This document shows positions 32,273 to 57,645 of a stretch of 64,000 bases of DNA, piece by piece (the stretch's first letter is position 1; every line of letters starts with the position of its first letter). Origin of the DNA: Candidatus Omnitrophota bacterium (GTDB lineage: Bacteria > Omnitrophota > Gorgyraeia > B26-G9); NCBI GenBank assembly GCA_043814605.1, contig JBDRJV010000002.1, forward strand, positions 26,374-90,373, given 5' to 3'. The notes under the pieces were generated by a model. It ran no database searches and was not told the origin of the DNA. It saw nothing but the letters and a program-made list of their open reading frames with translations. The position numbers and the translations under genes were made by a program.

Positions 32273-33229
32273 TTATTTTTTGCGGCCTGAGCCTCCCATT
32301 CCACCGCGGCTGCCACCTCTTTGCTGCTGTAATTGGCCTTGACCTTGGCCCGGACCTTTATCACGATTATAACCAGGTCCTCCAGGGCCTCTGCCTTGGC
32401 CTGGGCCTTGCCCTAGACCTCCTTGGCCATCACGTTTATCTTTAATATCCTCTCTGCGATCTCTGATATCTTCCCGTCTATCTTGACGGTCTTCACGCCG
32501 ATCCATAACATCTTCTCTGCGATCGCGACGATCTTCACGACGGTCAAGGACATCTTCACGTCTATCCATTACATCTTCTGCTTTATCTTTGCGAATATTT
32601 TCACCTAATTTATTTATTTGTCTTTCTAGCCTGGCTTTCTCTGCTGGATCAGTTGTATTAGTCAGCTGCTCTTGAAGATTACTCATTTTATCCGCTTTAA
32701 TTTTATCATCCCGGCGATCACGAATATCTTCTTGCCTATCTCTGATATCCTCCTGCTTATCCCAATAATCTTCTTTCCGGTCACGTATATCTTCTCTGTG
32801 ATCCATTACGTCTTCACGGCGGTCACGGACATCTTCACGCTGATCGCGATAATCTTCACGCCGGTCTCTAAATTGTTCACGATGTTCTTGCCCGGCCTGT
32901 TTCTCTGTATCATCAACTTGACCGTCATTATTGCGGTCTAAACGGTTCTGAAATCTTTCTCTAACTCTTTCTCTTTCTTGTTCATCTATTTTTCCATTAT
33001 TATTAGCATCTATTTTCTGCTTACGTTCTTGCCAGCGGTGCCTTTCTTTTGCATCTATTGCTCCGTCATCATTGCGGTCAATACGATCCTGCTTTGAACC
33101 CGGGCGAAAACTTCCAACACCTGTTCCAGCCTCACCTGTAGACTCTTGCGCAAAATTCAAACCGCAAAAAACAAAAATAAATGCTACCAAAAATACTCCT
33201 GCCCATAAAAATTTACTGCTTTTAAACAT
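32273..33229 (-). CDS. Secreted repeat protein with EF-hand-like loops, RED/heptad repeats and a Gly/Gln-rich tail.
   Basis: Signal peptide. Three DxNxDGxID..E loops (DRNDDGAIDAKE, DANNNGKIDEQE, DRNNDGQVDDTE). More than 15 tandem DRREDxx 7-aa repeats, encoded by a 21-nt periodicity. The C-terminus reads GQGGLGQGPGQGRGPGGPG…GGSRGGMGGSGRKK. Confidence 0.5.
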   Translation of the reverse strand: MFKSSKFLWAGVFLVAFIFVFCGLNFAQESTGEAGTGVGSFRPGSKQDRIDRNDDGAIDAKERHRWQERKQKIDANNNGKIDEQERERVRERFQNRLDRNNDGQVDDTEKQAGQEHREQFRDRREDYRDQREDVRDRREDVMDHREDIRDRKEDYWDKQEDIRDRQEDIRDRRDDKIKADKMSNLQEQLTNTTDPAEKARLERQINKLGENIRKDKAEDVMDRREDVLDRREDRRDRREDVMDRREDRQDRREDIRDRREDIKDKRDGQGGLGQGPGQGRGPGGPGYNRDKGPGQGQGQLQQQRGGSRGGMGGSGRKK

Positions 33230-43396: not shown

Positions 43397-43421
43397 TTTT
43401 TTTAGTAAATAAAATTATTAA

Positions 43422-43811
43422 TCATTCCTGGTTAAAGATTTTATTGATTTGATCAATCAAAACCTGAGCATCAAACGGCTTTGTCACAAAGCCGGCTATG
43501 CCTTGGCGCTCAATTAATATTTTCAACTGCTGATTATCCGTTCCGGTCATAATAATCACCGGTACTTTTGGGATAATCTCTTTAATTTTATTCATAACCA
43601 TAAGCACGGTAAGGCCGTCGGCTTCTGGCATCATTACATCTAAAAGCACTAAGTCCGGCTTTTCAAAAATTAGCTTACTCAGGCATTCTTTACCGCTATG
43701 AGCTACAATTGTTTCGAATTTATTTGCTCTTAGACGTGATTCCACTAACTTTGTCAAATTCTGATCATCATCTACCACTAATATTTTCTTGGCCATTTTT
43801 CCCCTCCTCAA
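43422..43811 (-). CDS. Single-domain CheY-like response regulator.
   Basis: 129 aa, receiver domain only (ILVVDDDQNL…DLVLLDVMMP…IIMTG…K). Confidence 0.8.
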   Translation of the reverse strand: MRRGKMAKKILVVDDDQNLTKLVESRLRANKFETIVAHSGKECLSKLIFEKPDLVLLDVMMPEADGLTVLMVMNKIKEIIPKVPVIIMTGTDNQQLKILIERQGIAGFVTKPFDAQVLIDQINKIFNQE

Positions 43812-43904
43812 TAAGCCCGCGACAGCGGGCGAATTAATCTCGAACCCTTTTTGGGTAAGAGACCTTTAATTAAAATATAAGAAAAACCTTAAATAACTAA
43901 TTCA

Positions 43905-44058
43905 TCAATCTATCAATTTAGCAATCTAGCAATTTAACAGTTTAACAGTTTATCAATTTATCAATTTAACAATATAACAATATAACAATTTAACAATTTA
44001 ACAATTTAACAATTTAACAATTTAACAGTTTAACAATTTAACAATTTAACAGTTTAAT
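43905..44058. repeat. Tandem array of about 19 copies of the 8-bp unit AATTTAAC and variants.
   Basis: Directly readable units: AATCTATC, AATTTAGC, AATTTAAC x many, AGTTTAAC, AATATAAC. The same unit recurs at 54806-54872. Confidence 0.8.
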
Positions 44059-45088
44059 ACTTCCTGTTCTTTTCTCCTCTTAACCTTCCGGTATACATAT
44101 AATTCATCATTAAACTGGTAATATATGCCGTAATTTTTAAAATCATTATACTTTCCGTATCTTTAATAATTAAATCTAAATCCTTAGATCTTTTAATTAA
44201 GGTTTTAACCAATCCATCAACAATATATTTTTTCTCACCTGTCCAGGTTGAAACACTATTAATTATTTGTTCTCTATATTTGTGAATTACTTTGTAGGCT
44301 TTTATGTGTTTTTTGTCTTCTTCAGTATTTAAACAAAAAATTCGTTTTAAATTTGTATCGTGAAAATCAAGAAAATCTTCCGCATAGGTATGTTTTTTTT
44401 TCTTATAATAATTTGCTAATGTTGAGGTTAGTTTTGCCGCCTGCCAGAATTTTTTCCCTTTTTCAACCCAGGGGTCTTTATCTTTTATTTGCGCCATTAA
44501 CTTATCTACATATTTAAGCTTTTGTAAAGCTCCCCAGCCCTTATATTGATTTTGCCAGTCAATATCCGGACAAAGCCAAACTGCAAACGTTTCGGCAAAA
44601 TCTTCATCCGGATGGTACTGTGCATAATAATCTTCCAAATGCCTGACAAAATTCTTACTGTAGAGCCGGAAACGGTAAGTATCCTTATATTCCTGATCAA
44701 ACGCACCAAAAAAATTTTGCCAGTTTGTTTTTTTGTACAACTTATAGGCATAATTTATAGCATGGCCTGTTTCGTGGCGCAATAACTGCATACACCAGGT
44801 TTTTGTCCCGCCTTCGACACTCAGCATCATTTGTTTTTCTAATTTCATCAAAGCCGGATGCGCCAGGAAAAAGGGAATACCCACAACCGGTTCGCCGTCC
44901 GGCGCAAGCCACTCATCCGCTAAATAACATTGCGGTTTGAATTTTATGCTTTTTGCCTGAAGTTCGTGATAAAGTTTATCCACACATTCCGCTAACCAAC
45001 ACTGATCTATGCTCAACGGTAAATCCCGAATCCTGGTTTTCAGCAAATCTACTTCGGGAACATTATCTAAATTTATTTTTTGTGCCAT
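44054..45088 (-). CDS. Putative zinc-dependent hydrolase (HExxH protein).
   Basis: 344 aa with a single HETGH motif (LLRHETGHAINYAY). No signal peptide and no confident family assignment. Confidence 0.45.
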   Translation of the reverse strand: MAQKINLDNVPEVDLLKTRIRDLPLSIDQCWLAECVDKLYHELQAKSIKFKPQCYLADEWLAPDGEPVVGIPFFLAHPALMKLEKQMMLSVEGGTKTWCMQLLRHETGHAINYAYKLYKKTNWQNFFGAFDQEYKDTYRFRLYSKNFVRHLEDYYAQYHPDEDFAETFAVWLCPDIDWQNQYKGWGALQKLKYVDKLMAQIKDKDPWVEKGKKFWQAAKLTSTLANYYKKKKHTYAEDFLDFHDTNLKRIFCLNTEEDKKHIKAYKVIHKYREQIINSVSTWTGEKKYIVDGLVKTLIKRSKDLDLIIKDTESIMILKITAYITSLMMNYMYTGRLRGEKNRKY

Positions 45089-45142
45089 TATTTTTTCACT
45101 GTTGCTGTTTTTTCTATTAACTTCTACTGGGTCCAGAATCTG

Positions 45143-45547
45143 TTACCAAAATTTTCCGCGAGGAGGAATTACTTCTTCTTCCTCCTCTTCTTCCTCTTCT
45201 TCCTCTTCTTCTGTTTCCGTACCATGATAAGAACAGACCACTACTGTCTGATAACTAGGATGAGATGAAGCATATGACTCCCAGGCATAAACTCCGCCGT
45301 TAGGACAACTCGGCATTTTGCTTAAATATCCTTCATCCAATAATTCCTGAAAAGTATCAGCATGCTGTTTTGTGTGGGATAAATACATGGTCTCTGCATT
45401 TTGTATCACTGCCCGGTTCTCAACACAAACACTCCTTTCTGCCGTACGCCGTCCGGAGAGAACTGCTAAAAAAGAATTTGCGCCCAAAAGCACAATAATT
45501 GCTAAAACAACCATAATTTCAATAAAAGTAAATCCCTTATTATTCAT
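45143..45547 (-). CDS. Type IV pilin/pseudopilin-like protein with a C-terminal poly-glutamate tract.
   Basis: Prepilin class-III N-terminus KG|FTFIEIMVVLAIIVLL and Cys-containing head domain. Fifteen consecutive Glu are encoded by a GAAGAG repeat at about 45172-45216. Confidence 0.75.
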   Translation of the reverse strand: MNNKGFTFIEIMVVLAIIVLLGANSFLAVLSGRRTAERSVCVENRAVIQNAETMYLSHTKQHADTFQELLDEGYLSKMPSCPNGGVYAWESYASSHPSYQTVVVCSYHGTETEEEEEEEEEEEEEVIPPRGKFW

Positions 45548-45549
45548 CT

Positions 45550-46107
45550 TTATTCCTGAGGATCATTTAATCTGACAATAACCGGCGGAGAATTGATCAC
45601 ATTGCAATAAATTTCGGTAATCTCAGTATTATGTTCATACGGCGACGGGCAGGCATAAACTCTAACATCATCCCGTTCTTTAAAAATATACGCTTTTTTA
45701 CTTACCGGGCAAATAAGTTCTTTATTTAAATATCTTCCTTTAACTAATTCATCCATTTCCTGCGGAAATTTTCCCTGATCTGCATAAAATAAATCTAAAG
45801 CTTTTCTTAAACGCCATAAATTAAGAAGGCAGCCGTCAATTTTAATATCAAACTCAGACCTTTCTCCCCTAGCCCAGGGCTGCGGTGTACGCAAAGGGCT
45901 GCTTCTACTAAATAATTTTCCGCACAAAGAAAAAACTAAGACCGTAATTATCATCAAGCCGACAATCAAAGATATTCTTCTTCCTTTTAAATTAACTGCT
46001 GATGATTTTTTTTGCTCGATTATTTCTTCCTGAGCTTCGGCTTGTTTTTTTGATTTAAAATCAGAAAATATATTTTTCAATTCCTGATCTATATTATGAT
46101 CATTCAT
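45550..46107 (-). CDS. Hypothetical bitopic membrane protein, possibly pilus-associated.
   Basis: Cytoplasmic acidic N-terminus, one TM helix, and a periplasmic Cys-containing domain. It sits 3 nt after the pilin gene. Confidence 0.4.
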   Translation of the reverse strand: MNDHNIDQELKNIFSDFKSKKQAEAQEEIIEQKKSSAVNLKGRRISLIVGLMIITVLVFSLCGKLFSRSSPLRTPQPWARGERSEFDIKIDGCLLNLWRLRKALDLFYADQGKFPQEMDELVKGRYLNKELICPVSKKAYIFKERDDVRVYACPSPYEHNTEITEIYCNVINSPPVIVRLNDPQE

Positions 46108-46151
46108 GTTTTTTTGGTTCTACCTTTTACTTTTCACCTTAATGATTTTTT

Positions 46152-48347
46152 TTATTTACGTTTTAAAAGCAGTTTGACCCGAGCTAACAACCTGACTCCG
46201 TCAAAAGGTTTGGCAATATAATCATCAGCTCCGGCATCTAATCCTTCAATCTCACTACTTGTATCTTTTTTAGCGGTAAGGAGAATAATCGGAATCCCCG
46301 CTGTTTTTAATTCAGACCGGATCCTGCGCGTTGCTTGAAATCCGTCCATAACCGGCATCATTACATCCATAATTAATAAATCCGGCGCTGTTCTCATACA
46401 GGCTTCAAAAGCTTCCTGGCCGTTTTCCGCTTCAATAATATCAAACCCTGCACTTTTTAAGCGCATACCCACAAGCTTACGAATATTTTTTTCATCATCT
46501 GTAACCAGAACCAGTGGTTTTTCCCGCAGAGGTTTTTGTTTAATAAGTTCTGTCTCAATCTGTTTCGGTTTTCCTTCTGGTTTTACTGCTGGTTTTACTT
46601 CTGGCTGGCCCTCAACTAAAGATTTTTCTTCAACCTGTTCTAAAACTGAAGTCTGCGTAACCTCTTCCAGAGTTGTTATCCCTAAAGCAACTTTCTCTAT
46701 CCCCGCCTCAGCCAAACTCCTTAACCCGGAATTTTGCGCCATAAGCGCAATTTCTGTTTGGGTTGCATTTTCTGAAACAAGAGCTTTAATTTTTTTCGTA
46801 AATTCAAATAGTTCCACAATCGCTACGCGGCCTAAATATCCGCTAAAACTGCATTCCGCACACCCCTTACCGTGATAAAATTTAGAGATACTGTATTTTT
46901 TAATAAAATTGGCAAATTTTTCCTGTAATTTTTTATCCGGGTTATATCCTTCTTTACAATGCGGGCAAATAACCCGCACCAAACGCTGCGCAATAATCAA
47001 AACTACAGAAGAAGCAATTAAATATGGCTCAAGGCCAATATCCAGAAGGCGGCTGATTGAAGATACCGCGTCATTAGTGTGCAATGTGGAAAAAACCAGA
47101 TGCCCGGTTAACGCAGCTTTAAACGCAACCTCTGCGGTCTCTGAGTCCCGGATTTCCCCGACTAAAATCACATCCGGGTCCTGGCGCAAGATACTACGCA
47201 GTCCGGCAGCAAAAGTAACATCTTTTTTCGGGTTAATCTGAATCTGGTTAATCCCTTCCATTAAATATTCAATCGGGTCTTCAACTGTAACAATATTTTT
47301 TGTCTCATTTTTTATATAAGCCAAGGCCGCATAAAGCGTGGATGTTTTCCCGGACCCTGTCGGCCCGGTAACTAACACCATTCCCTGCGGCCGGGTAAAA
47401 ACTTCTTTCATTATTTCCAATTCATTCGGAGCAAAACCTAATGTATCTATTTTAATTTTGGCTTTTTGCGGGTCTAATACGCGAAATACAATTTTTTCTC
47501 CGTAATAAGCCGGGATAATGGAAATTCTCAAATCAATTTTCCGGTTATTATACATTATATCTGCCCGGCCGTCTTGCGGTTTTCTTGTCTCCGCAATATC
47601 AAGATTAGAAAGAATTTTTACACGGGCTGTAAATTGCGGATACATTTCACTGGGAATTTTCATAATATTTTTTAAATAACCGTCCACGCGGTAACGTACA
47701 TCCACAAAATTTTCTTGCGGCTCAACATGAATATCCGTCGCCCGGTTACGGATAGCGTCGCTTAAAATAACTTTGACTAATCTGACCACCGGAGAACGTT
47801 CTAAATCAAATCTATTTGCATCAGTTATTTTGCCATCCGATGATTTATCATCCTTGATTACCTCTAAAGAAGAATCATCAACAATATTTTTTAATAAATC
47901 ATAGAGCGAATCATCAATATGATAGTGTTTTTCAATCTGGGTGGCAATATCTGTTTTACTGGCCAATACCGGCTGAATCGGGAATTTAACTAATAACCTT
48001 AAATCATCTAAAGCCACAATGTCCTGGGGATTACTCATAGCCAGAAGCAAATTGTTATTTTCCGTACGGATGGGGAAAACTCCGTAACGCCTGGCTAAAT
48101 CATAGGAAATTACTTTTATTGCATGATCATCTATTGTTTGGCCATTTAAGTTAATGATCGGCATTTTAAAAAAGCGCGATAAAACTTCCATCATTTTCTC
48201 TTCTGCAATAAATCCCATTTCTACTAATACATCTTGGATCGGGATTTTTGCACCGAGTTGACGCTGGCGCGCTTCTTGTAACTGAGCATCCGTAATAAGC
48301 TTTTCCTCAATTAAAACAGTTATTAATGTTTTAAACACAAGCTTCAC
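46152..48347 (-). CDS. GspE/PilB-family secretion/pilus ATPase fused to a C-terminal receiver domain.
   Basis: T2SSE_N-like N-domain, Walker A GPTGSGKTST, the VGEIRD motif and the His-box TLHTND. The C-terminal ~130 aa is a REC domain (LVLVTDDEKNI…DLLIMDVMMP…ILLTAKKD). Confidence 0.85.
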   Translation of the reverse strand: MKLVFKTLITVLIEEKLITDAQLQEARQRQLGAKIPIQDVLVEMGFIAEEKMMEVLSRFFKMPIINLNGQTIDDHAIKVISYDLARRYGVFPIRTENNNLLLAMSNPQDIVALDDLRLLVKFPIQPVLASKTDIATQIEKHYHIDDSLYDLLKNIVDDSSLEVIKDDKSSDGKITDANRFDLERSPVVRLVKVILSDAIRNRATDIHVEPQENFVDVRYRVDGYLKNIMKIPSEMYPQFTARVKILSNLDIAETRKPQDGRADIMYNNRKIDLRISIIPAYYGEKIVFRVLDPQKAKIKIDTLGFAPNELEIMKEVFTRPQGMVLVTGPTGSGKTSTLYAALAYIKNETKNIVTVEDPIEYLMEGINQIQINPKKDVTFAAGLRSILRQDPDVILVGEIRDSETAEVAFKAALTGHLVFSTLHTNDAVSSISRLLDIGLEPYLIASSVVLIIAQRLVRVICPHCKEGYNPDKKLQEKFANFIKKYSISKFYHGKGCAECSFSGYLGRVAIVELFEFTKKIKALVSENATQTEIALMAQNSGLRSLAEAGIEKVALGITTLEEVTQTSVLEQVEEKSLVEGQPEVKPAVKPEGKPKQIETELIKQKPLREKPLVLVTDDEKNIRKLVGMRLKSAGFDIIEAENGQEAFEACMRTAPDLLIMDVMMPVMDGFQATRRIRSELKTAGIPIILLTAKKDTSSEIEGLDAGADDYIAKPFDGVRLLARVKLLLKRK

Positions 48348-48351
48348 CTTT

Positions 48352-49104
48352 TTAATTTAATATTTCTTTTATTTTTGCCAATAATTCTTCGGCACTAAAA
48401 GGCTTGGTCAAATAACCGCTAATTTCCTCTGTCTCTAAGAGACTTCTTATCTCTTCCCCGGCACAAGCACTTAAAATTAATACGGGTATTTTAGGAATTG
48501 ATTCATCCCCTTCACTGGATTGCCTTAGTTCTTTTAGTGTAATCAAAGTGCTGTAACCATCCATTTCCGGCATCATTACATCGAGTAAAATTAAATCCGG
48601 TTTAGCCGCCATGATTTTTTCAATACATTCAACCCCGTTACTAGCAGTGATTACATCATAACCATTCGCTTTTAACCTGAACTCCATTAATTTAACTACA
48701 TGCGCCTCATCATCAACAATGAGTATTTTTTTCCTACGGGAAGGGGCCGCAATCTCAGAAGAAAACTTATTAATAATTTTATCAATATCTTCTAATTCAC
48801 AAGGCTTACTTAAATATTCATCTACACCAACGGATTTAGCAAAAAAATCCTGCATGCCGGAATATCCGGTTAAAATCACGGTTTTTGTCCTGATTTTATT
48901 TTCTTTGATAAACTTCACCAGCTCCATCCCGGTCATTTCCGGCATATTATGATCAATAAAAGCGACATCATAATTATTTTCTTTAATCATTTTTTTTGCC
49001 TGCAAACCATTCTCGGCAATCTCAATAGTGTGCCCCTTCCGCGTTAAGTAAGTATTTAACAAATCTGTAATTATTTTAGTATCATCGGCAACTAATATTT
49101 TCAT
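48352..49104 (-). CDS. Dual-receiver (REC-REC) response regulator.
   Basis: Two complete receiver domains (ILVADDTKII…FIDHNMPEM…; ILIVDDEAHV…LLDVMMPEMDG…). No output domain. Confidence 0.8.
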   Translation of the reverse strand: MKILVADDTKIITDLLNTYLTRKGHTIEIAENGLQAKKMIKENNYDVAFIDHNMPEMTGMELVKFIKENKIRTKTVILTGYSGMQDFFAKSVGVDEYLSKPCELEDIDKIINKFSSEIAAPSRRKKILIVDDEAHVVKLMEFRLKANGYDVITASNGVECIEKIMAAKPDLILLDVMMPEMDGYSTLITLKELRQSSEGDESIPKIPVLILSACAGEEIRSLLETEEISGYLTKPFSAEELLAKIKEILN

Positions 49105-49146
49105 AAGTTCACCTTTTTTTATCTGACAATTATTAATAAAGAATTA

Positions 49147-51363
49147 TCATAACAAATATCTGACTAATTTTTTAAGTTGTGATAATTCCATGGGTTTGCC
49201 AATAACCGGAATAGCTTTTTTCTTAACATAATCACTTATCTTTTCAAACTCAATAGAATATCCGGAAACAATCATAATTGGGATATCTTTGGTTTTCATG
49301 TCTTCTTTAAGCCGGCCAATTACTTCATACCCGTTCATTTTAGGCATTTGCATGTCGAGGATAATTAAGTCCGGAATATTATTATCGATTACTTTAAAAA
49401 CATCCTCACCGTTATTAACCGCATTCAGATTATTATATCCAATATTTTTTAGAGATTTTTGCATAAAAAATACAATGTCCATACTGTCATCGGCAATAAG
49501 AATTTTCTTTTTCAAGCGTTCTGATTTTTCGCTAACCATTGACCGGCAAGCTAGCGCAAAAAGTTCTTCGGCGTTGGATGCAGCTTTAGGAAAACTAGCC
49601 CAGCCGTAAGAAAAGTCCAGCTCCAGTTCATCATTAAATTTAAAAATCTCATTTTTTACAATCCTTTTTAAGCGTTCCTGCCAAGCAGCTGCATCATGCG
49701 AGGCAATATCAGCAATTAGAATAATCTGTCTTAATTCCAGAATCAGAAACGGTTCTACGGACCCGATTATTTGTTTAAGTTTGTAAAAAATTTCGTATAA
49801 AACTGTCGTAATTTTATTATCCCCCTCCTGTTTTATAATTTCCTCAGTCGGATTTAAAGACAAGACAAAAACAGCACACTCCCTTTCCTCTTTACTAGAT
49901 TTATTAATTAATTGTCCCAGCGATTCCAAGACAAGCTGTTTTTGCGTAGTTTGTTTCGGCAGGGTAAAAATAAATTTTGTGCCTTTATTTATTTCGCTTT
50001 CTACCCAAATTTGGCCATGATGTAATTCAATTATTCCTTTACAAATTGCTAATCCCAAGCCAGTCCCTTTTTCTCCCGGTCCATATTGCCGGTCAAATTG
50101 TTTAAATTTATCAAAAACACTCACAATCTCATCCGGCGTTAATCCTTTGCCTGTATCAATAACCGCGCATTGGATCATTTCCCCCTGATCACTAACAGAA
50201 ATTTCAATTTTCCCTTTTTGCGTAAATTTTAAGGCATTGCCCATAAGATTAGTCAGCACTTGGATTATTTTATCGCGGTCTGCATTGACCTCAATTTGAT
50301 CGCCGGAAAAACTTGTGATCATTTCTATTTTTTTCTCTTTTAACCTTGGCGTAAAAGTATTTTGTACGCTTTTGATCACGCTAATCATGTCAAAATTATC
50401 TTTATATAATTCAACTTTTTGTGCCTCGAGCTTGGATATATCTAATAAATCATTAATGATTCTCATTAAACGGTCTACATCCTGTAAACAGATTAAAAGA
50501 AAATCTCTTTGCTCAGCTGTGGTCGGGCCTAATATTCCGTCTAAAATTTGAGAAACAACTTCCCGGATAGTAGTTAAAGGAGTCCTTAGTTCATGAGAAA
50601 CAGTACTGATTAAATCATCCTTAAGCTGTTCATTTCTTTTACTTTCAGTAATATCTTTAATTACATGTATAATTTTAATCATTTCTTGTTTTTCATTTAG
50701 AATAGGCGTGACCGCTATTTCCACATATTTTTTTAAACGTGAATCATAGGTTTGAATAAATTCTTGTTTTTTGCTTTTTAATACTTTTTTATACGGGCAA
50801 TTTTTTATGCATTCATTTGTTCCGTGAACAACTGTATGGCAAATTAATCCTCGACACTCCTCAACCCCAATATTATAAGCACGCGCAAAAGCCTGATTTA
50901 CCATTAGCAAACGGCCTTCCTGATCCATAACCGAAACTATATCGGTTAAAGAATTAAATGTATTTTCTAAATTCTCCGCAAGCTGAATAATTTTGCCTTC
51001 TTCTCTTTTACGCTCGCTAATATCCTCAAAACATTCCACCACGCCAATAATCTGACCATTTTTATCCGTCAAAACCTCGGCTTTTTTAAATATTAAACAA
51101 AATTTTCCGTCTTTTCTTTTAATTATGCATTCTTTATTTTTTATCGGTGTTTTGATATCTTTAGCAAAAATCTGGCAGACTTTCTGACAGCTTTGCTCAA
51201 TAAAAAAATCACATTTTTTCCCGATAGCTTCCTCTTTAGTATATTGAGTGATTGCTTCGGCTTGATTGTTCCAATGGGTAATAATTTTATTATTATTTAA
51301 ACAATACACACCATAAGGCATAGTTTCAAACATTAATTCATAATATAAATTTTTATTTTCCAT
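49147..51363 (-). CDS. Hybrid PAS sensor histidine kinase with a C-terminal receiver.
   Basis: Two PAS modules, H-box VSHELRTPLTTIREV, HATPase_c (DTGKGLTPDE…GTGLGLAICKG), an uncharacterised middle domain and a REC domain (ILIADDSMDI…LIILDMQMPKMNG). Confidence 0.8.
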   Translation of the reverse strand: MENKNLYYELMFETMPYGVYCLNNNKIITHWNNQAEAITQYTKEEAIGKKCDFFIEQSCQKVCQIFAKDIKTPIKNKECIIKRKDGKFCLIFKKAEVLTDKNGQIIGVVECFEDISERKREEGKIIQLAENLENTFNSLTDIVSVMDQEGRLLMVNQAFARAYNIGVEECRGLICHTVVHGTNECIKNCPYKKVLKSKKQEFIQTYDSRLKKYVEIAVTPILNEKQEMIKIIHVIKDITESKRNEQLKDDLISTVSHELRTPLTTIREVVSQILDGILGPTTAEQRDFLLICLQDVDRLMRIINDLLDISKLEAQKVELYKDNFDMISVIKSVQNTFTPRLKEKKIEMITSFSGDQIEVNADRDKIIQVLTNLMGNALKFTQKGKIEISVSDQGEMIQCAVIDTGKGLTPDEIVSVFDKFKQFDRQYGPGEKGTGLGLAICKGIIELHHGQIWVESEINKGTKFIFTLPKQTTQKQLVLESLGQLINKSSKEERECAVFVLSLNPTEEIIKQEGDNKITTVLYEIFYKLKQIIGSVEPFLILELRQIILIADIASHDAAAWQERLKRIVKNEIFKFNDELELDFSYGWASFPKAASNAEELFALACRSMVSEKSERLKKKILIADDSMDIVFFMQKSLKNIGYNNLNAVNNGEDVFKVIDNNIPDLIILDMQMPKMNGYEVIGRLKEDMKTKDIPIMIVSGYSIEFEKISDYVKKKAIPVIGKPMELSQLKKLVRYLL

Positions 51364-51718
51364 TTTTCTTTTGGCCCATTAATATTTTTTAAAAACTTAA
51401 CGCTGTTTTAAACATAAAAATAAATTCATAACTCTAGTTTTATGAACCTGTTCTTAAAACAAGAAAATACATTAATATCTTCTTTTGCTAATACTTATTT
51501 TAAACTATGCAGTCTAAAACTTATTTTACAACACTTGATTTTTAAAAGCAAAACAAATATAATAAGGACCAAACATAAAATCTCAGGTCACAAGTTCCAA
51601 GCTGCAAGCAATAATTAATAAGCCTATTCGGATTCTGAATTATAAATTTTAGATCCTAGATATAGGAAAAAGCTGGATAAAAATACGCGAAAACCAAAAC
51701 CGAAAAGGGAGTAAAACT

Positions 51719-52465
51719 ATGTATAAAGTAGTATTGTTACGTCACGGCGAAAGTATTTGGAACAAGGAAAATAAATTCACCGGATGGACAGATGTTGATC
51801 TTTCTGAAAAAGGGCTGGAAGAAGCCAAACAAGCTGGTATTTTACTCAAAAACGAAGGATATACATTTGACATTGCGTTTACAAGTGTACTTAAACGAGC
51901 TATCCGCACCTTGTGGATTACCCTCGATGAAATGGATTTAATGTGGATTCCTGTACACCGCTCCTGGCGGCTTAACGAAAGACATTACGGTGCATTACAA
52001 GGATTGAACAAGGCAGAAACTGCAGTCAAATACGGAGATGAAAAAGTGCTAATCTGGCGCCGCAGTTATGAGACTCCGCCGCCAGGATTGGAAAAAGAAG
52101 ATCCGCGCTGGCCAGGCCATGACCCCAGATACGGGGACATGAAAGAAAGAGAAATCCCGCAAACCGAGTGCCTTAAAGATACAGTTACCCGGTTTTTGCC
52201 TTACTGGCATGAAACTATTGCCCCGGCTATTCGGTCTGGAAATAATGTTTTAATTGCTGCACACGGTAACAGCCTGAGAGCATTAGTAAAATATTTAGAT
52301 GATATTTCAGAAGATGAAATTGTAAAATTAAATATCCCGACCGGAGTTCCTCTGGTCTATGAGTTAGCTGAAAACCTCAAACCGATAAAGCATTATTATC
52401 TTGGGGATCAGGCAGCAATTCAAAAAGCAATGCAGGCTGTGGCTAATCAGGGAAAAGCAAAATAA
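51719..52465 (+). CDS. gpmA: 2,3-bisphosphoglycerate-dependent phosphoglycerate mutase.
   Basis: [27 protein letters not shown] catalytic-His motif and the full dPGM fold. A GGGAG ribosome-binding site lies 8 nt upstream. Confidence 0.9.
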
Positions 52466-52630
52466 ATCAGATTCTAGGCCTTAGATACTGGATGCTAGTT
52501 AACAGAAAAAAGCGTTATCCTAAAAAGTTTAATAGTAACTAGCTGATGGCTGATAGCTCTTAGCAAAAGCAAAAAAAACAGATCGAAACCAAGCAACGAA
52601 GGACGAGAGACGAAAAAGCAAAAAAAACAT

Positions 52631-52676
52631 AAACAGGCAGCAGTTAAAATTTAACTTGTTGCCTGTTTTCTTTTTA
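52631..52676 (+). terminator. Intrinsic terminator after gpmA.
   Basis: Stem ACAGGCA / TGCCTGT with a nested GTTAAA/TTTAAC hairpin in the loop, then TTTCTTTTTATT. Confidence 0.55.
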
Positions 52677-52707
52677 TTATAATTTTTTAGTCTTTTGTCT
52701 CTGGTCT

Positions 52708-53571
52708 TTAGTCTGATAGATATTCACTCGCAATGTAGGAACTGCGTACATACGGCGCGCTTTCCACATGTTTAAAACCTAATTCCTGGGCTCTTATTTT
52801 ATAAAAAACAAAATCTTTCGGCTTTATGTACTCAACTACAGGGTAATAGTTTTTCCCCGGGGATAAATACTGCCCGATACTGAGAAAATCACAACGGCTA
52901 TTTTTTAAATCATCAAGCACAGTTAAAACCTCTTCTTTTCTCTCCCCTACTCCCAGCATAATGCCTGATTTTGTATAAATATAGGGATTAATTTCCTTGG
53001 CCAGTTTTAATATGCCCAAAGAGCGTTTATAGTTTGCCTGAGGCCGGATTTTTGGATATAAATCTGGTACAGTTTCCACATTGTGCGCAAAAATATCCGG
53101 ACAGGCTTTGGTTACACTTTCAATAGCAGCATAATCAGCTTGAAAATCCGGCACTAACACTTCCACTTTAATATCCGGATTAATTTTACGGATTGCTTTA
53201 ATTGTGCGCACAAACATCTCAGATCCCTGATCCTTTAAATCATCCCGCGTTACACTGGTAATTACTACATGCCTCAGGCCCATTTTTTTTACAGCCTGGG
53301 CCACATTATCCGGCTCGTTAAAATCAGGCACTAGCGGCTTTCCCGTATCAACCGCACAGAAATTACAATTTCTCGTACAAATACTACCTAATATTAAAAA
53401 AGTCGCAACTCTCTTCGAAAAACATTCCCCGATATTCGGGCATTGCGCTTGCTGGCAAACTGTATTCAGTTTTAGCCCTTTAAAAAGACGTTTCAATTCT
53501 TCACACCCTTTTAAATTAATTTTTTTATTCAGCCAGGACGGCCGGCGTATTTCCGATGTTTTTTCTATCAT
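52708..53571 (-). CDS. lipA: Lipoyl synthase.
   Basis: N-terminal RRPSWLNKKI, auxiliary-cluster Cys residues (CQQAQCPNIGEC) and radical-SAM CTRNCNFC. Confidence 0.9.
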   Translation of the reverse strand: MIEKTSEIRRPSWLNKKINLKGCEELKRLFKGLKLNTVCQQAQCPNIGECFSKRVATFLILGSICTRNCNFCAVDTGKPLVPDFNEPDNVAQAVKKMGLRHVVITSVTRDDLKDQGSEMFVRTIKAIRKINPDIKVEVLVPDFQADYAAIESVTKACPDIFAHNVETVPDLYPKIRPQANYKRSLGILKLAKEINPYIYTKSGIMLGVGERKEEVLTVLDDLKNSRCDFLSIGQYLSPGKNYYPVVEYIKPKDFVFYKIRAQELGFKHVESAPYVRSSYIASEYLSD

Positions 53572-54376
53572 TTTCTCTAATTTTAGTCTGCCGATAATTG
53601 TTCCAATTTTTTGTATTATATTTTTCTTTTATCAGCCTATTCGTTAATTCTTTTTCAAAATCAGTCAGCTCTGCTTTATTTAATTCTAAAGAAAACATTT
53701 GTTTGAAATTATCAATTAAAGCACAGCGAAGCTGATCAAAATCAATATTTTTATTCAAAGCCTGCGATAACGAAATAATTTTATTTTCAAGATTAACAAA
53801 TTTCTCTTTAAAAATAGATTTTATTTCTCCAAAATCTAAAGCTAAAGGAAGAGAACCGTGCTGAAAAATAAAATTTTTTTCTCTTTTTTGTGCATTGCCG
53901 CCAATTTTTTTATTATTTATTAAAATATCGAATTTTTCCCGGGTGGCAAAACAAAAATTAGATTCATCCCCGTGCGTATAATCTCCTTTTGTATCGGCAA
54001 AATAAGCACAAAGGCCCAGGCTTTTATAAGTATTGATAATAAATGCAGTTAATATTTTAAAACTTTTTCTTACGGAATCTCCTAAATCCAGATCATTTTT
54101 TGTGCAAACCAGGCTATAAGTAAGTTCCTGATCGTGAAAAATTGCTTCTCCGGCGCTGATGCGTCTTACATATTCGATTTGTTTTGCTTTGCATAAATCA
54201 AGATGCAAAACAGCCTGCGGATTTTGCCTTATTCCTAAAGATATGCTGGGTTTCTGCCAACTGTATATGCGTAATGTAGGCCGAATAAGGCCTTGCTTAT
54301 AGGATTGAAATATCGCTTCATCAATAGCCATATTGGTATAAGCATTGCCAGGATCAGAAAGTATTAAACGCCACAT
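53525..54376 (-). CDS. Lipoate-protein ligase / octanoyltransferase-family protein (LplA/LipM-like).
   Basis: BPL_LplA_LipB catalytic domain (PTLRIYSWQKPSISLGIRQN…GEAIFHDQELTYSL). It overlaps the lipA start by 47 nt. Confidence 0.7.
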   Translation of the reverse strand: MWRLILSDPGNAYTNMAIDEAIFQSYKQGLIRPTLRIYSWQKPSISLGIRQNPQAVLHLDLCKAKQIEYVRRISAGEAIFHDQELTYSLVCTKNDLDLGDSVRKSFKILTAFIINTYKSLGLCAYFADTKGDYTHGDESNFCFATREKFDILINNKKIGGNAQKREKNFIFQHGSLPLALDFGEIKSIFKEKFVNLENKIISLSQALNKNIDFDQLRCALIDNFKQMFSLELNKAELTDFEKELTNRLIKEKYNTKNWNNYRQTKIRENDRKNIGNTPAVLAE

Positions 54377-54428
54377 AGCAAATTGGTAAACTGTTAAAGG
54401 GTTATACTGTTAAATTACGAAAAACTAA

Positions 54429-54803
54429 TTATTTTGTTAATTTTGTATCTGTATAAGAGATAAGATGGTTTATTTCTACAGGCAGTTTATTTAACTCTTT
54501 GGTTATATATTCACATTGTTCTTTGGTCAGTAATTTTCTTTTCTCTGCTTTATTAATCCAGTCAAACGATTCCTTTAAAGAGCCAAAGCTGTAACGATAA
54601 AAATTAATTTTATCTTTTTTAAAATATCGGCCGAAACCTTCTGCTATATTTGCAGATATTGAATCAACCGATTCTACTAATTGCTGGCCAACAGTACGTT
54701 TAGCAAAATAATCCCATTTTGTTACAATATCCCAAATATAATTAGATAAACTGAAGGAAATTTTATAAGAACTAATGTCTTCCAATAATAAATACTTTTT
54801 CAT
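54429..54803 (-). CDS. Four-helix-bundle protein (rRNA intervening-sequence protein family).
   Basis: GQQLVESVDSISANIAEGFGR… fits the family consensus. No SD precedes it; the 8-bp tandem repeat abuts its start codon. Confidence 0.6.
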   Translation of the reverse strand: MKKYLLLEDISSYKISFSLSNYIWDIVTKWDYFAKRTVGQQLVESVDSISANIAEGFGRYFKKDKINFYRYSFGSLKESFDWINKAEKRKLLTKEQCEYITKELNKLPVEINHLISYTDTKLTK

Positions 54804-54805
54804 AT

Positions 54806-54872
54806 TGTCAGTTTAACAGTTTAGCAGTATAACAATTTAGCAATTTAACAATTTAACAGTATAACAATTTAT
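54806..54872. repeat. Second array of 8 copies of the 8-bp AATTTAAC tandem repeat.
   Basis: Units AGTTTAAC, AGTTTAGC, AGTATAAC, AATTTAGC, AATTTAAC x2, AGTATAAC and AATTTATT lie between the gcvPB stop and the four-helix-bundle start. Confidence 0.75.
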
Positions 54873-56317
54873 TTTCGCCATCTCAGGTTTAAATCGCGTG
54901 CGGCTTTTGTTTCATCCAGCCTTTTCACCGGCATATTCTGCGGAGCATTTTTTAAAACTTGCGGATCTTCTTGAACCAGTTTTGCAGCAGTAATCATCAC
55001 TGCAATAAAATTATCTAGAGTTTCTTTGGATTCTGTTTCTGTCGGCTCAATCATTAAGGCTTCTTTAACAATCAACGGGAAATATACTGTCGGAGGATGA
55101 ATCCCCTGCGCAATCAGATATTTTGCAATATCTAAGGCACTGGTCCCCTTTTCTTTAGCTTTAGCTAAGGATAAAACAAATTCATGCATACAAATACGAT
55201 CATAAGGAACATCAAAATATTTTTTTAAAAGCACGCGGACATAATTTGCATTAAGTACAGCCAGTTCTGCAACTTCGATTAATCCCGCAGCCCCGAGCAT
55301 CATGATATAAGCATAACTTTTAAGGATAACGCTGAAATTACCGCAAAACGGCGCAATATAACCTAAGGATTTTGGGGCATTATAATTTAACGCATATGTT
55401 CCATCCGTGCGTTTAATAACCCGAGAAATTGGCAGATAAGGTTCCAGTTTTTTGTTTACTCCCACCGGACCCGCTCCCGGACCGCCGCCGCCATGAGGAG
55501 TAGCAAAAGTTTTATGCAGGTTTAAATGCACAATATCAAACCCTAAATCACCTGGCCGAGCCTTACCTAAAATCGCATTAAGATTAGCTCCATCATAGTA
55601 GACCAGTGCTCCTACTGCATGCGCAGCATCACAAATTTGTTTAATTTGGGGATTAAAAATCCCAAGCGTGTTGGGACAAGTTAACATTACTCCGGCAATA
55701 TCTTTATTTAACTTACTTTTATACTCATCAAAATTCATACAGCCATTTTTATCAGTAGAAACAACAATAACTTCATAACCAGCTATTGCCGCACTTGCAG
55801 GATTAGTGCCATGCGATGAATCCGGAACAATAATATATTTACGTTTTTCATTATTAAAACGATGATATGCGGCAATGATCATTGCCCCGGTAAGTTCTCC
55901 GTGCGCCCCGGCTAAAGGCTGCATTGTAAAAGCACTCATCCCGGTAATTTCCGCTAAAACTTTTTCTGTTTTATAGACTACTTCTAAAGAACCTTGCGCT
56001 AACATCCCGCCGCCCCTTAATTGAGGCATTAAAGGATGCAAATTTATAAACCCATCCAGACTTGCAATTTTCTCTGTAAATTTAGGATTATACTTCATTG
56101 TACAAGACCCCAGCGGATAAAAATTTGTATCTACGGAAAAATTCATACGGGATAAATTAGTATAATGGCGTACAACATCTAATTCAGAAACTTCCGGCAA
56201 ATCTGCACTTTCTGCTCTGGCATATTCTTTTGGGAATTTAAGATCTTTTTTTACCGTGCACTCAGGAAGCTTGAACCCGTTTGTCCCTTTTCGGCTTTTC
56301 TCAAATATTAATCGCAT
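54869..56317 (-). CDS. gcvPB: Glycine dehydrogenase (decarboxylating) subunit 2.
   Basis: PLP-Lys motif NLHKTFATPHGGGGPG. The likely start is MRLIFEK at 56317; the ORF extends to 56344. Confidence 0.9.
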   Translation of the reverse strand: MRLIFEKSRKGTNGFKLPECTVKKDLKFPKEYARAESADLPEVSELDVVRHYTNLSRMNFSVDTNFYPLGSCTMKYNPKFTEKIASLDGFINLHPLMPQLRGGGMLAQGSLEVVYKTEKVLAEITGMSAFTMQPLAGAHGELTGAMIIAAYHRFNNEKRKYIIVPDSSHGTNPASAAIAGYEVIVVSTDKNGCMNFDEYKSKLNKDIAGVMLTCPNTLGIFNPQIKQICDAAHAVGALVYYDGANLNAILGKARPGDLGFDIVHLNLHKTFATPHGGGGPGAGPVGVNKKLEPYLPISRVIKRTDGTYALNYNAPKSLGYIAPFCGNFSVILKSYAYIMMLGAAGLIEVAELAVLNANYVRVLLKKYFDVPYDRICMHEFVLSLAKAKEKGTSALDIAKYLIAQGIHPPTVYFPLIVKEALMIEPTETESKETLDNFIAVMITAAKLVQEDPQVLKNAPQNMPVKRLDETKAARDLNLRWRK

Positions 56318-57645
56318 AATACTGCCTCTAAACTTTCTGCACACTTAATAATTTCTTCTTTTGTTCTTTTTTCCGTAACAGTTACTAAAAGATAATTCTG
56401 CATATTTTTATAAAATCTGCTTAAGGGAAACCCACAGGCAAACCCCTTATTAATCATTTTATTCACAACTTCACCGGCATTTTGCGGCAGTAATACAGTA
56501 AATTCATTGAAAGTCGGAGAACGTTTTTTTACTTCCACCCCAGGGATTTGACCAAAAATTTCCTTAGCAAATTCCGCTTTTTTGTAATTAATTTCCGCTA
56601 ATTCTTTTAATCCTTGTTTGCCTAATAATGATAAATAAATAACTGCCCGCAAAGCACAAAGCGCTTCATTACTGCAAATATTAGAAGTCGCTTTTTCCCG
56701 GCGGATATGCTGTTCCCGTGCCTGAAGAGTTAAAACAAAACCGCGTTTACCATCTTCATCTACGGTTTCCCCGACAACTCTGCCCGGGATTTTACGTAAG
56801 TATTCTTTTTTTACAGCCATAAAGCCTAAATAAGGACCGCCAAAAGAAAGCGGCAAGCCTAAACTTTGTCCTTCGCCTGTAGCAATATCCACATCCATTT
56901 CCGCAGGGCTCTTAAGTAATCCTAAAGCAATCGGATATACCGATTGAATTAATAAAGCCCCTGCCGCATGTGCTTTTTTCACAATATCAGAATGGTCATC
57001 AATTACGCCAAAAAAATTAGGGTTTTGCACAATTACCGCTGCGGTTTTATCATCTAAATATTTATAGATTTCATCGCGGTAACTGTGTCCATGGACAACC
57101 TGAGTCTCGATAAACTCAACTGCCAAATTTTTTGTATAGCTATAAAGCATACTCCGGTAAACAAGATTTACGCCGCTATCCACAATTATTTTTCTGCGGC
57201 CGGTAATGCGTACTGCCATCATTGCGGCTTCATACAAAGCCGTGCCTCCATCATAAAGTGAAGCATTTGACGCGTCCAGTCCGGTTAATTGACAGATTAC
57301 GCTTTGGTATTCATAAATAGCCTGTAACCATCCTTGTGAACATTCCGGCTGATAAGGGGTGTAAGCTGTATAAAATTCAGAACGGCCGGCTATTGCATCT
57401 ACAGCCGCAGGAATATAATGGTCATAAAAACCTGCCCCTAAAAAATTAATGAGATTCGTGGCATTTTTTGCGGCCAGTTTTTTAAAATGTTCGATAACTT
57501 CAAACTCAGATTTACCTTCTGGTAAATTAAAAGACTGCGCTTTTAAATCATCCGGGATATCACAAAATAATTCATCAATTTTGGATACACCGATGGTTTT
57601 GAGCATTGATTTTATTTGTTCTTTAGTATGGGGAGTATATCCCAT
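56308..57645 (-). CDS. gcvPA: Glycine dehydrogenase (decarboxylating) subunit 1.
   Basis: 445 aa GcvPA homolog. Its stop overlaps the gcvPB start. Confidence 0.9.
   Translation of the reverse strand: MGYTPHTKEQIKSMLKTIGVSKIDELFCDIPDDLKAQSFNLPEGKSEFEVIEHFKKLAAKNATNLINFLGAGFYDHYIPAAVDAIAGRSEFYTAYTPYQPECSQGWLQAIYEYQSVICQLTGLDASNASLYDGGTALYEAAMMAVRITGRRKIIVDSGVNLVYRSMLYSYTKNLAVEFIETQVVHGHSYRDEIYKYLDDKTAAVIVQNPNFFGVIDDHSDIVKKAHAAGALLIQSVYPIALGLLKSPAEMDVDIATGEGQSLGLPLSFGGPYLGFMAVKKEYLRKIPGRVVGETVDEDGKRGFVLTLQAREQHIRREKATSNICSNEALCALRAVIYLSLLGKQGLKELAEINYKKAEFAKEIFGQIPGVEVKKRSPTFNEFTVLLPQNAGEVVNKMINKGFACGFPLSRFYKNMQNYLLVTVTEKRTKEEIIKCAESLEAVLCD

Follow-up and report, generated by a model that had tools for sequence, protein, structure and literature searches.

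Intervening sequences (IVSs) of 23S ribosomal RNA (rRNA) that bear an open reading frame (ORF) are known in Leptospira, Coxiella burnetii and Xanthomonas (PMC4990558). In the Coxiella IVS, an S23p ORF homologous to the gene described below lies in the loop of a 28-bp terminal stem, within which RNase III cleavage has been mapped. Directly 5' of its ATG are three to four tandem heptamers (GACAGAT) whose number varies between strains, and the Shine-Dalgarno sequence (SD) is poor (PMC4990558). Excision by RNase III has been shown for the Coxiella, Leptospira and Salmonella IVSs only. Avd, an accessory protein of diversity-generating retroelements (DGRs), forms a positively charged pentamer and binds a defined RNA element (bioRxiv 10.1101/2023.10.23.563531). 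Here, we describe a 64,000-nucleotide stretch of a Candidatus Omnitrophota genome (the window; contig JBDRJV010000002.1), in which an initial annotation had reported two arrays of one 8-bp tandem repeat, array 1 and array 2. We find that array 2 is one arm of a small cassette, in which an S23p-family gene is enclosed between inverted arrays of the same unit in the spacer between gcvPB and lplA. The closest known system is the 23S rRNA IVS with an S23p ORF.

A four-helix-bundle gene between inverted arrays

Tandem Repeats Finder detects array 2 with period 8 (7.5 copies at 54812-54871) and also with period 16 (54809-54871). Its units read, on the sense strand, ATTGTTAT ACTGTTAA ATTGTTAA ATTGCTAA and so on. 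The array begins directly past the stop codon of gcvPB and ends 3-6 nt short of the ATG of the next gene (54803), with no SD in between, in agreement with the initial annotation. The product of this gene, hereafter the cargo protein, had been called a four-helix bundle. This is borne out by matches to Pfam PF05635 ('23S rRNA-intervening sequence protein', E=1.8e-20) and to TIGR02436 ('four helix bundle protein', E=3e-22). PDB entries 2GSC (X. campestris XCC0516; E=1.1e-10) and 2RLD, both of which comprise five deposited chains, are matched by a profile built from relatives of the cargo protein. Among Pfam and TIGRFAM-type family matches, no nuclease or recombinase domain was found in this 124-residue protein, the sole ORF of the cassette, and PADLOC gave no defence-system match for it.

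A third array, missed by the initial annotation, changes the interpretation. It is inverted with respect to array 2 and lies on the other side of the cargo gene. Its units read in sense AATTTAAC AGTATAAC CCTTTAAC AGTTTACC AATTTGCT and end at the ATG of lplA. The cargo TAA and this 3' arm are 12 nt apart, and the final cargo codons (AAATTAACAAAATAA) resemble decayed units. The 37 nt of the 3' arm are 81% complementary to 54834-54870. In the minimum free energy fold of the cassette RNA, the arms pair and the ORF is enclosed (dG -102.2 kcal/mol, z -2.67). An independent ENA assembly of the same strain matches the window base for base across the ORF's 3' half and the whole 3' arm, which speaks against an artefact of assembly. 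Note that this contig (L222) begins inside the cargo ORF, at window position ~54592.

Arrays 1 and 2 are confirmed and stand far above chance. A two-unit 16-mer, with at most 3 mismatches, has 30 matches in the window versus 7.1 +/- 2.7 in shuffled sequence, and 0 of 100 shuffles reach 30; nearly all matches sit in arrays 1 and 2. The arrays lie 10 kb apart and hold the same variant units. All three variants named by the initial annotation (AGTTTAAC, AATATAAC and AATTTAGC) are present. Scanned in full for the motif, the window has no further array of this kind. Both arrays sit between co-directional genes. All genes of the region are on the minus strand and the unit on the transcript is ATTGTTAA/GTTAAATT, so that the RNA reads (ATTGTTAA)n. 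Every unit has TAA on both strands. With a period of 8, three units therefore stop all six reading frames, which confines the arrays to spacers. Phased DNA curvature is unlikely at this period.

Operon context and empty sites in relatives

According to Pfam, the host operon is a minus-strand glycine-cleavage/lipoylation operon composed of gcvT, gcvH, gcvPA, gcvPB, lplA and lipA. The closest gcvPB homologues, from Omnitrophota with 80-81% identity, lie in the same operon. There, the gcvPB-lplA spacer measures 54 nt (L202/L203) or 44 nt (L204/L205) and contains neither an extra gene nor 8-mers. These empty spacers in two related Omnitrophota lineages show that the cassette is an insertion. No target-site duplication is identifiable, the empty-site spacers of the relatives having diverged beyond alignment with the sequence on either side of the cassette.

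At 72% identity, the closest Omnitrophota relative of the cargo protein is encoded between a PqqD-like gene and radical-SAM genes, within arms of the same type. The cassette thus sits at different sites in different Omnitrophota. The contig with this cassette (L201) also carries a c-di-GMP-I riboswitch at 1121-1210, upstream of small unannotated genes. Relatives of the cargo protein at 68-74% identity are found in Omnitrophota, Andersenbacteria, Moranbacteria, Curtissbacteria and other Patescibacteria. Such identity across phyla is too close for vertical descent and therefore implies horizontal spread. In exact look-ups, no identical sequence was on record for the cargo protein or for the receiver (REC) protein encoded next to array 1, and the window as a whole has no match in Rfam.

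Recurrence of the cassette design

We collected 80 metagenomic loci solely by the similarity of their product to the cargo protein (54-71% identity). With the window included, 78 of 81 loci have both arms. The general design, seen in numerous bacterial phyla, is (ATTGTTNN)n up to the ATG, the ORF, then (NNAACAAT)m from or just past the stop codon; as in the window, arrays reach start codons that have no SD. A period test that uses no motif (lags 5-12) gave lag 8 as the best in 70/80 5' arms and in 74/80 3' arms. Six of the eight positions of the consensus unit are conserved. ATTGTT is invariant and the last two positions are free, across elements whose proteins diverge by 25-46%. Arms are mostly 4-6 units long, with a mode of 4 and many of 5-6 (range 3-16 in cassettes).

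The free dinucleotide varies between elements, and in 38 of 78 it is the same in both arms, versus 12.4 expected (maximum 25 in 10,000 shuffles). Complementarity holds for the arms as a whole, being higher between the arms of one cassette than across loci (p=2.6e-6). At least 15 arm-arm base pairs (median 27 bp) were obtained in the RNA folds of 68/80 cassettes, versus 19/80 with a shuffled 3' arm and 17/80 with a direct-orientation 3' arm. Shuffled and direct-orientation arms served as controls since a reversed 3' arm still pairs in folding, the unit TTAACAAT being a mirror repeat. A reversed (TTAACAAT)n array, such as that at window 43987-44026, is the same array rotated by one base.

Cassettes between co-directional genes are oriented in sense in 46 of 47 cases, with one opposed (p=7e-13). 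The median distance from the upstream stop codon to the cargo start is 63 nt, so the upstream spacer is essentially the arm alone. ORFs of at least 80 codons are close on both sides in 76/80 loci, and an Rfam scan of the four loci with ORF-free flanks found no rRNA. In L127 (1770-2495), a cassette is located beside a cluster of three tRNA genes. Short-read contigs with the cargo family are mostly ~1 kb long and often break within the ORF or at an arm. Many near-identical copies in each community would fit this, and cassettes are therefore probably under-represented in metagenome-assembled genomes (MAGs).

An orphan array at the edge of a second insertion

Array 1 was found by Tandem Repeats Finder with period 8, 20.4 copies, 87% matches and a score of 214. 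The initial annotation had counted about 19 copies at 43905-44058. The array is real; its true start is about 10 nt earlier and it holds 20 units, a count that is approximate in this short-read MAG. Its orientation in sense is that of the cassette 5' arm. It is homogeneous toward the upstream gene and degenerate at the opposite end, and the TAA stop of the upstream gene falls in its first degenerate unit. Taken alone, the array does not have an unusual fold (z -0.93).

In two related Omnitrophota lineages (L207-L210), the synteny around this site is kept (PilB-REC, two small genes, peptidase-like, ATP-grasp, SpoU), and the peptidase-like gene overlaps the ATP-grasp gene by ATGA, so that the two are coupled in translation. 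In the window, these two genes are separated by 658 nt (43397-44053), made up of array 1, an 80-nt spacer with two hairpins and the gene of a stand-alone receiver. The comparison of this gap with the overlap in relatives argues that array 1 marks the edge of a second small insertion, carrying the REC gene and absent from related genomes. The G+C-rich hairpin (43816-43832) was not scored as an intrinsic terminator. Array 1 probably has no regulatory role of its own. The suggestion that the shared unit reflected a function or a mobile origin thus found support, as both arrays lie at the edges of small insertions absent from relatives and the arms recur in the protein-anchored sample.

An independent ENA contig (L206) is 100% identical to the window over 1.87 kb and diverges 12 nt before array 1. 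It ends 37 nt past the divergence (1869-1906 versus window 44057-44070), with a different C-terminus and stop codon of the peptidase-like gene, and its divergent tail has no other occurrence anywhere in the window. Either a junction that varies between strains or an assembly break caused by the repeat may account for this. Another REC-like gene abuts an array hairpin in L103 (~2135-2317).

Table 1 Positions of the cassette, of array 1 and of their neighbours in the window
Feature	Position	Strand	Basis or remark
5' arm (array 2), ~8 tandem 8-nt units	54806-54872	minus	Tandem Repeats Finder, direct reading
Cargo gene, 124-aa four-helix-bundle protein (23S rRNA intervening-sequence / S23p family)	54429-54803	minus	no SD
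3' arm, 4-5 degenerate inverted units	54380-54416	minus	inverted-repeat search; minus-strand motif match
Whole cassette (arm, ORF, arm), ~490 nt, fills the entire gcvPB-lplA spacer	54377-54868	minus	comparison with relatives and fold
gcvPB	54869-56344	minus	Pfam
lplA	53525-54376	minus	Pfam
Array 1, orphan array of 20 units	43894-44057	minus	Tandem Repeats Finder and direct sequence reading
Peptidase_Mx-like gene, upstream of array 1	44054-45088	minus	Pfam
Stand-alone receiver (CheY-like, REC) gene	43422-43796	minus	Pfam Response_reg E=5.9e-24; strong SD
G+C-rich hairpin GCCCGC-TGTC-GCGGGC, between array 1 and REC gene	43816-43832	minus	fold/sequence
Second small hairpin, between array 1 and REC gene	~43838-43865

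Arrays and hairpins without the gene

When one genome per species was scanned for exact copies of (AATTTAAC)3, at least 120 loci were obtained. Among the matches listed, to which the counts of this section refer, are Bacteroidota, many lineages of the candidate phyla radiation (CPR), Gammaproteobacteria, cyanobacteria (including Symploca and Caldora), Verrucomicrobia, Ignavibacteria and others, several genomes having many loci. The commonest paired form is a hairpin composed of (ATTGTTAA)n (R array), a loop of less than 100 nt and (TTAACAAT)n (U array). Its polarity is R-loop-U in 28 cases and the opposite in one (p=1e-7). These ORF-less hairpins often sit in spacers of ribosomal-protein, ATP-synthase or Rnf operons, with several per locus in CPR genomes. 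The cargo gene is present in L084, L102 and L110 only, each time exactly between an R and a U array. Neither cargo genes nor pseudogene remnants were found beside the 120 listed arrays outside these three loci. Where the neighbouring genes are co-directional, orphan arrays have either orientation (42 versus 22), and they are almost never inside ORFs. Many of them fill the spacer exactly, from stop codon to start codon.

Several ORF-less hairpins from different CPR genomes (L027 1030-1094 and 7803-7879, L072 7462-7550, L103 4259-4392) have a loop of the form ATGCATAGCA(T). This shared loop consists of an ATG followed by TAG a few codons on, and resembles a cassette from which the ORF has been almost exactly deleted. 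Such sequences suggest gene-bearing cassettes as the source of the ORF-less hairpins. A part of the orphan arrays may be ordinary microsatellites. Non-random features are the polarity of the hairpins, the clustering of loci in certain genomes and, most of all, the loci sampled by protein similarity.

Carriage by phages was considered and rejected: an array was found in 10 viral contigs, with one weak cargo relative, and AATTTAAC is not enriched there with respect to controls.

Proposed mechanism

We hold with high confidence that the gene and its two arms form an IVS-like cassette. For the arrays as a set, the explanation that we favour by a modest degree is that they are the terminal arms of such a cassette, promoter-less and selfish, plus one orphan array. 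As part of the same explanation, array 1 would be an expanded single arm, left by or seeded from a cassette-type element.

The cassette, inserted in sense in the gcvPB-lplA spacer, would be co-transcribed with the operon. In the polycistronic RNA, the two arms would pair into an imperfect duplex of ~30-45 bp around the ORF. By analogy with the homologous ORF-bearing rRNA IVSs, RNase III would cut this stem. The cut would free the cargo mRNA and disconnect the cistrons on either side. Register slips would be tolerated in the pairing of arms built from tandem 8-mers, and slippage could lengthen and shorten these arms. We have moderate confidence in this stem mechanism.

Several results weigh against this explanation. 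The mispairs between arms carry no RNA-strand signature (94 G.U-type versus 107 A-C-type on the sense strand), and the variant units of one arm do not recur in mirrored order in the other (0.809 versus 0.816 when permuted), which gives no evidence of a fixed register. The arms of the window are only ~81% complementary. ATTGTT is invariant though a mere stem would need no such conservation. Since pairing does not require it, the invariant core points to sequence-specific recognition of the unit by a factor. The pentameric cargo product is possibly this factor, as the obvious candidate by analogy with its relatives. Array 1 has neither an inverted partner arm nor a cargo remnant. Among the matches listed, 117 of the 120 array loci have no adjoining cargo gene, and arrays may have a life of their own. 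Finally, (AATTTAAC)3 occurs in 10 viral contigs and three composition-matched control triplets in 17, 12 and 22. Control 8-mers being as frequent, the breadth of genome matches alone is therefore no evidence.

Alternative explanations

The invariance of the core bears directly on a first alternative, which we consider tentatively, though it has a substantial share of the probability as a rival or a complement of the stem. The units would be iterated recognition sites for the cassette's own product. Proteins of the S23p/Avd type are homopentameric rings with a positive charge, and one ring would bind about five consecutive ATTGTTNN units of single-stranded RNA or DNA. The TRAP ring similarly binds tandem triplets. 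Binding would autoregulate translation, given that the 5' arm extends to the ATG, and/or label the termini of the element; the 20 units of array 1, like other orphan arrays, would be targets in trans. This would account for ATTGTT being invariant next to two free positions despite the divergence of the proteins. Arms of mostly 4-6 units agree with it, and so do the five chains in 2GSC and 2RLD. The S23p protein of X. campestris is a homopentameric toroid, according to a study cited in PMC4990558, and Avd, the sole characterised member of the family and likewise pentameric, binds a defined RNA element (bioRxiv 10.1101/2023.10.23.563531). The near-exclusive R-loop-U polarity is what polar recognition predicts, and the unmirrored unit order fits unit-wise binding better than a fixed stem. 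However, the modal arm has four units and not five, so that the pentamer arithmetic is suggestive at best. Ring binding alone also leaves the concordance of the free dinucleotide between arms unexplained, and most of the pattern-derived arrays, among the matches listed, have no cargo gene nearby.

A second alternative, which appears unlikely to us, places the function of the arms at the DNA level. The cassette would be an element comparable to foldback transposons and miniature inverted-repeat transposable elements (MITEs), its arms being terminal inverted repeats for a recombinase acting in trans or for hairpin processing at replication forks. The ORF-less hairpins would be miniatures and the four-helix-bundle gene a passenger or accessory. 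The presence/absence polymorphism at two sites and the different insertion sites in different Omnitrophota agree with this. So do the abundant ORF-less hairpins of one polarity, several per locus in CPR ribosomal-protein and ATP-synthase operons, and the variable and unequal arm lengths, as in eukaryotic foldback elements. The symmetry of A-C and G-T mispairs also fits evolution at the DNA level. On the other hand, no transposase or recombinase was found in or beside cassettes, no target-site duplication is identifiable with spacers that cannot be aligned, the element is rare in viral contigs, and the 46:1 sense bias needs an extra assumption, namely selection for expression.

The arrays could also be domesticated intercistronic spacers with no mobile element, that is, A/U-rich, weakly structured leaders with stops in all frames that uncouple and restart translation. 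We consider this very improbable. Many orphan arrays do span exactly from stop to start codon, every unit has TAA on both strands and arrays reach SD-less start codons. Yet both sense orientations occur (42 versus 22), relatives manage with short ordinary spacers or a gene overlap, and inverted pairs around one gene family are left unexplained.

The least probable explanation, suggested by the initial annotation and hardly tenable, is a contingency (phase-variable) locus in which slippage alters promoter or ribosome-binding-site spacing: copy number does differ widely between elements, the homologous Coxiella heptamers vary between strains (PMC4990558) and an independent assembly breaks or diverges at array 1, but promoter and terminator scans of both array regions gave nothing above chance, with 0 promoter-like hexamers around array 1 versus 4.6 expected and array 2 not above chance, no sigma-70-like promoter lies in or around the arrays, a position from stop to start codon within operons without an SD offers no spacing that could be tuned, and two assemblies have the same 3' arm, base for base.

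Other features of the window

Several genes of the window lie outside the array regions. On the minus strand, 32273-33229 encodes a 318-aa protein with a signal peptide and a Gly/Gln-rich tail, the greater part of which is composed of heptad repeats of the RREDxxD type. The repeats correspond to 21/42/63-nt tandem repeats detected by Tandem Repeats Finder at 32443-32579. A pilin-like protein with an N-methyl motif is encoded at 45143-45547 (minus) and ends in ~13 glutamates (CTT repeat 45172-45212). Upstream of its gene is that of a PilB/MshE-type secretion ATPase with a C-terminal receiver domain (46152-48347, minus), itself preceded by genes for a double-REC protein and a PAS-HK-REC hybrid kinase.

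Implications

The S23p or 'four helix bundle protein' family is among the most abundant uncharacterised small bacterial proteins, and the subfamily described here has more than 3,000 cluster representatives. So far, the family has been studied solely as an oddity of rRNA IVSs and as the DGR accessory Avd. Here, inverted arrays of a single 8-nt motif flank nearly every member of a conserved subfamily, which lies in sense within operons and for which empty sites are documented. This offers experimental handles, namely a candidate ligand of 40 nt (for example (AUUGUUAA)5 or (UUAACAAU)5), a putative substrate of RNase III and a way to assay mobility. It also explains a class of short tandem arrays and hairpins that break short-read assemblies of Omnitrophota, CPR and Bacteroidota MAGs. 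For annotation, such arrays are to be read as cassette boundaries rather than as promoters or phase-variation tracts.

A broader proposal can be made, with considerable reserve. Cassettes with ATTGTTNN arms, ORF-less hairpins and orphan arrays might together be an unrecognised cross-phylum class of 'mRNA intervening sequences', in which a pentameric S23p-type protein would recognise its own 8-nt arms, with about one unit per subunit, for transcript excision, self-regulation or spread. Were recognition by the protein true, it would give a ligand and a role to an S23p family that has been orphan for 30 years, and it would explain why its relatives are found in rRNA stems and by DGR reverse transcriptases.

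Comparison with known systems

In the literature consulted, mostly open-access, we found no paper with the repeat sequence and none that links S23p or four-helix-bundle genes to flanking tandem arrays outside rRNA, though a prior description is possible. Several systems share part of the design.

Simple-sequence contingency loci of Haemophilus and Neisseria are slippage-prone repeats in coding regions or between promoter elements that act as on/off switches. The arrays described here are likewise slippage-prone short tandem repeats. Unlike those loci, they lie between stop and start codons with no promoter.

Repetitive extragenic palindromic (REP) sequences and bacterial interspersed mosaic elements (BIMEs) are associated with a HUH transposase (RAYT), and REP sequences are single imperfect palindromes. 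The short tandemly repeated repetitive (STRR) sequences of cyanobacteria are 7-nt tandem arrays in spacers, with different unit sequences. Like both, the present arrays are dispersed intergenic repeats inside operons. In contrast to REP sequences, they are tandem 8-mers and not single imperfect palindromes, and the associated protein is a four-helix bundle and not a HUH transposase. We know of no link between STRR sequences and S23p genes.

Eukaryotic foldback (FB) transposons and bacterial MITEs have inverted arms of short tandem repeats in variable number, and many copies are ORF-less hairpins. The cassette shares terminal inverted repeats and presence/absence polymorphism with them. It differs in being prokaryotic, very small and located in sense within operons, with no transposase known.

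Avd belongs to the same fold family as the cargo protein. Unlike in DGRs, no reverse transcriptase and no template or variable repeats lie by the cassette, whose neighbours are glycine-cleavage/lipoylation genes. To our knowledge, no Avd gene is bracketed by tandem-repeat arms.

The rRNA IVSs come closest. The cassette differs from them in its site, which is a spacer between protein genes in mRNA rather than helix 9, 25 or 45 of 23S rRNA, with no rRNA in the flanks. Its arms consist wholly of tandem 8-mers with an ATTGTT core, versus a unique 28-bp stem plus heptamers, and its ORFs are intact and conserved in hundreds of loci, whereas those of the IVSs are decaying. The rRNA IVSs are excised by RNase III; excision of the cassette would follow by analogy. 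The likeness lies in the cargo, of the PF05635/TIGR02436 family, and in the placement of the ORF within the loop of a terminal inverted-repeat stem. Both systems also have tandem repeats of variable number directly 5' of the ATG and a poor or absent SD. Both lack a promoter of their own and depend on the host transcript for expression, and both show a sporadic, horizontally spread distribution.

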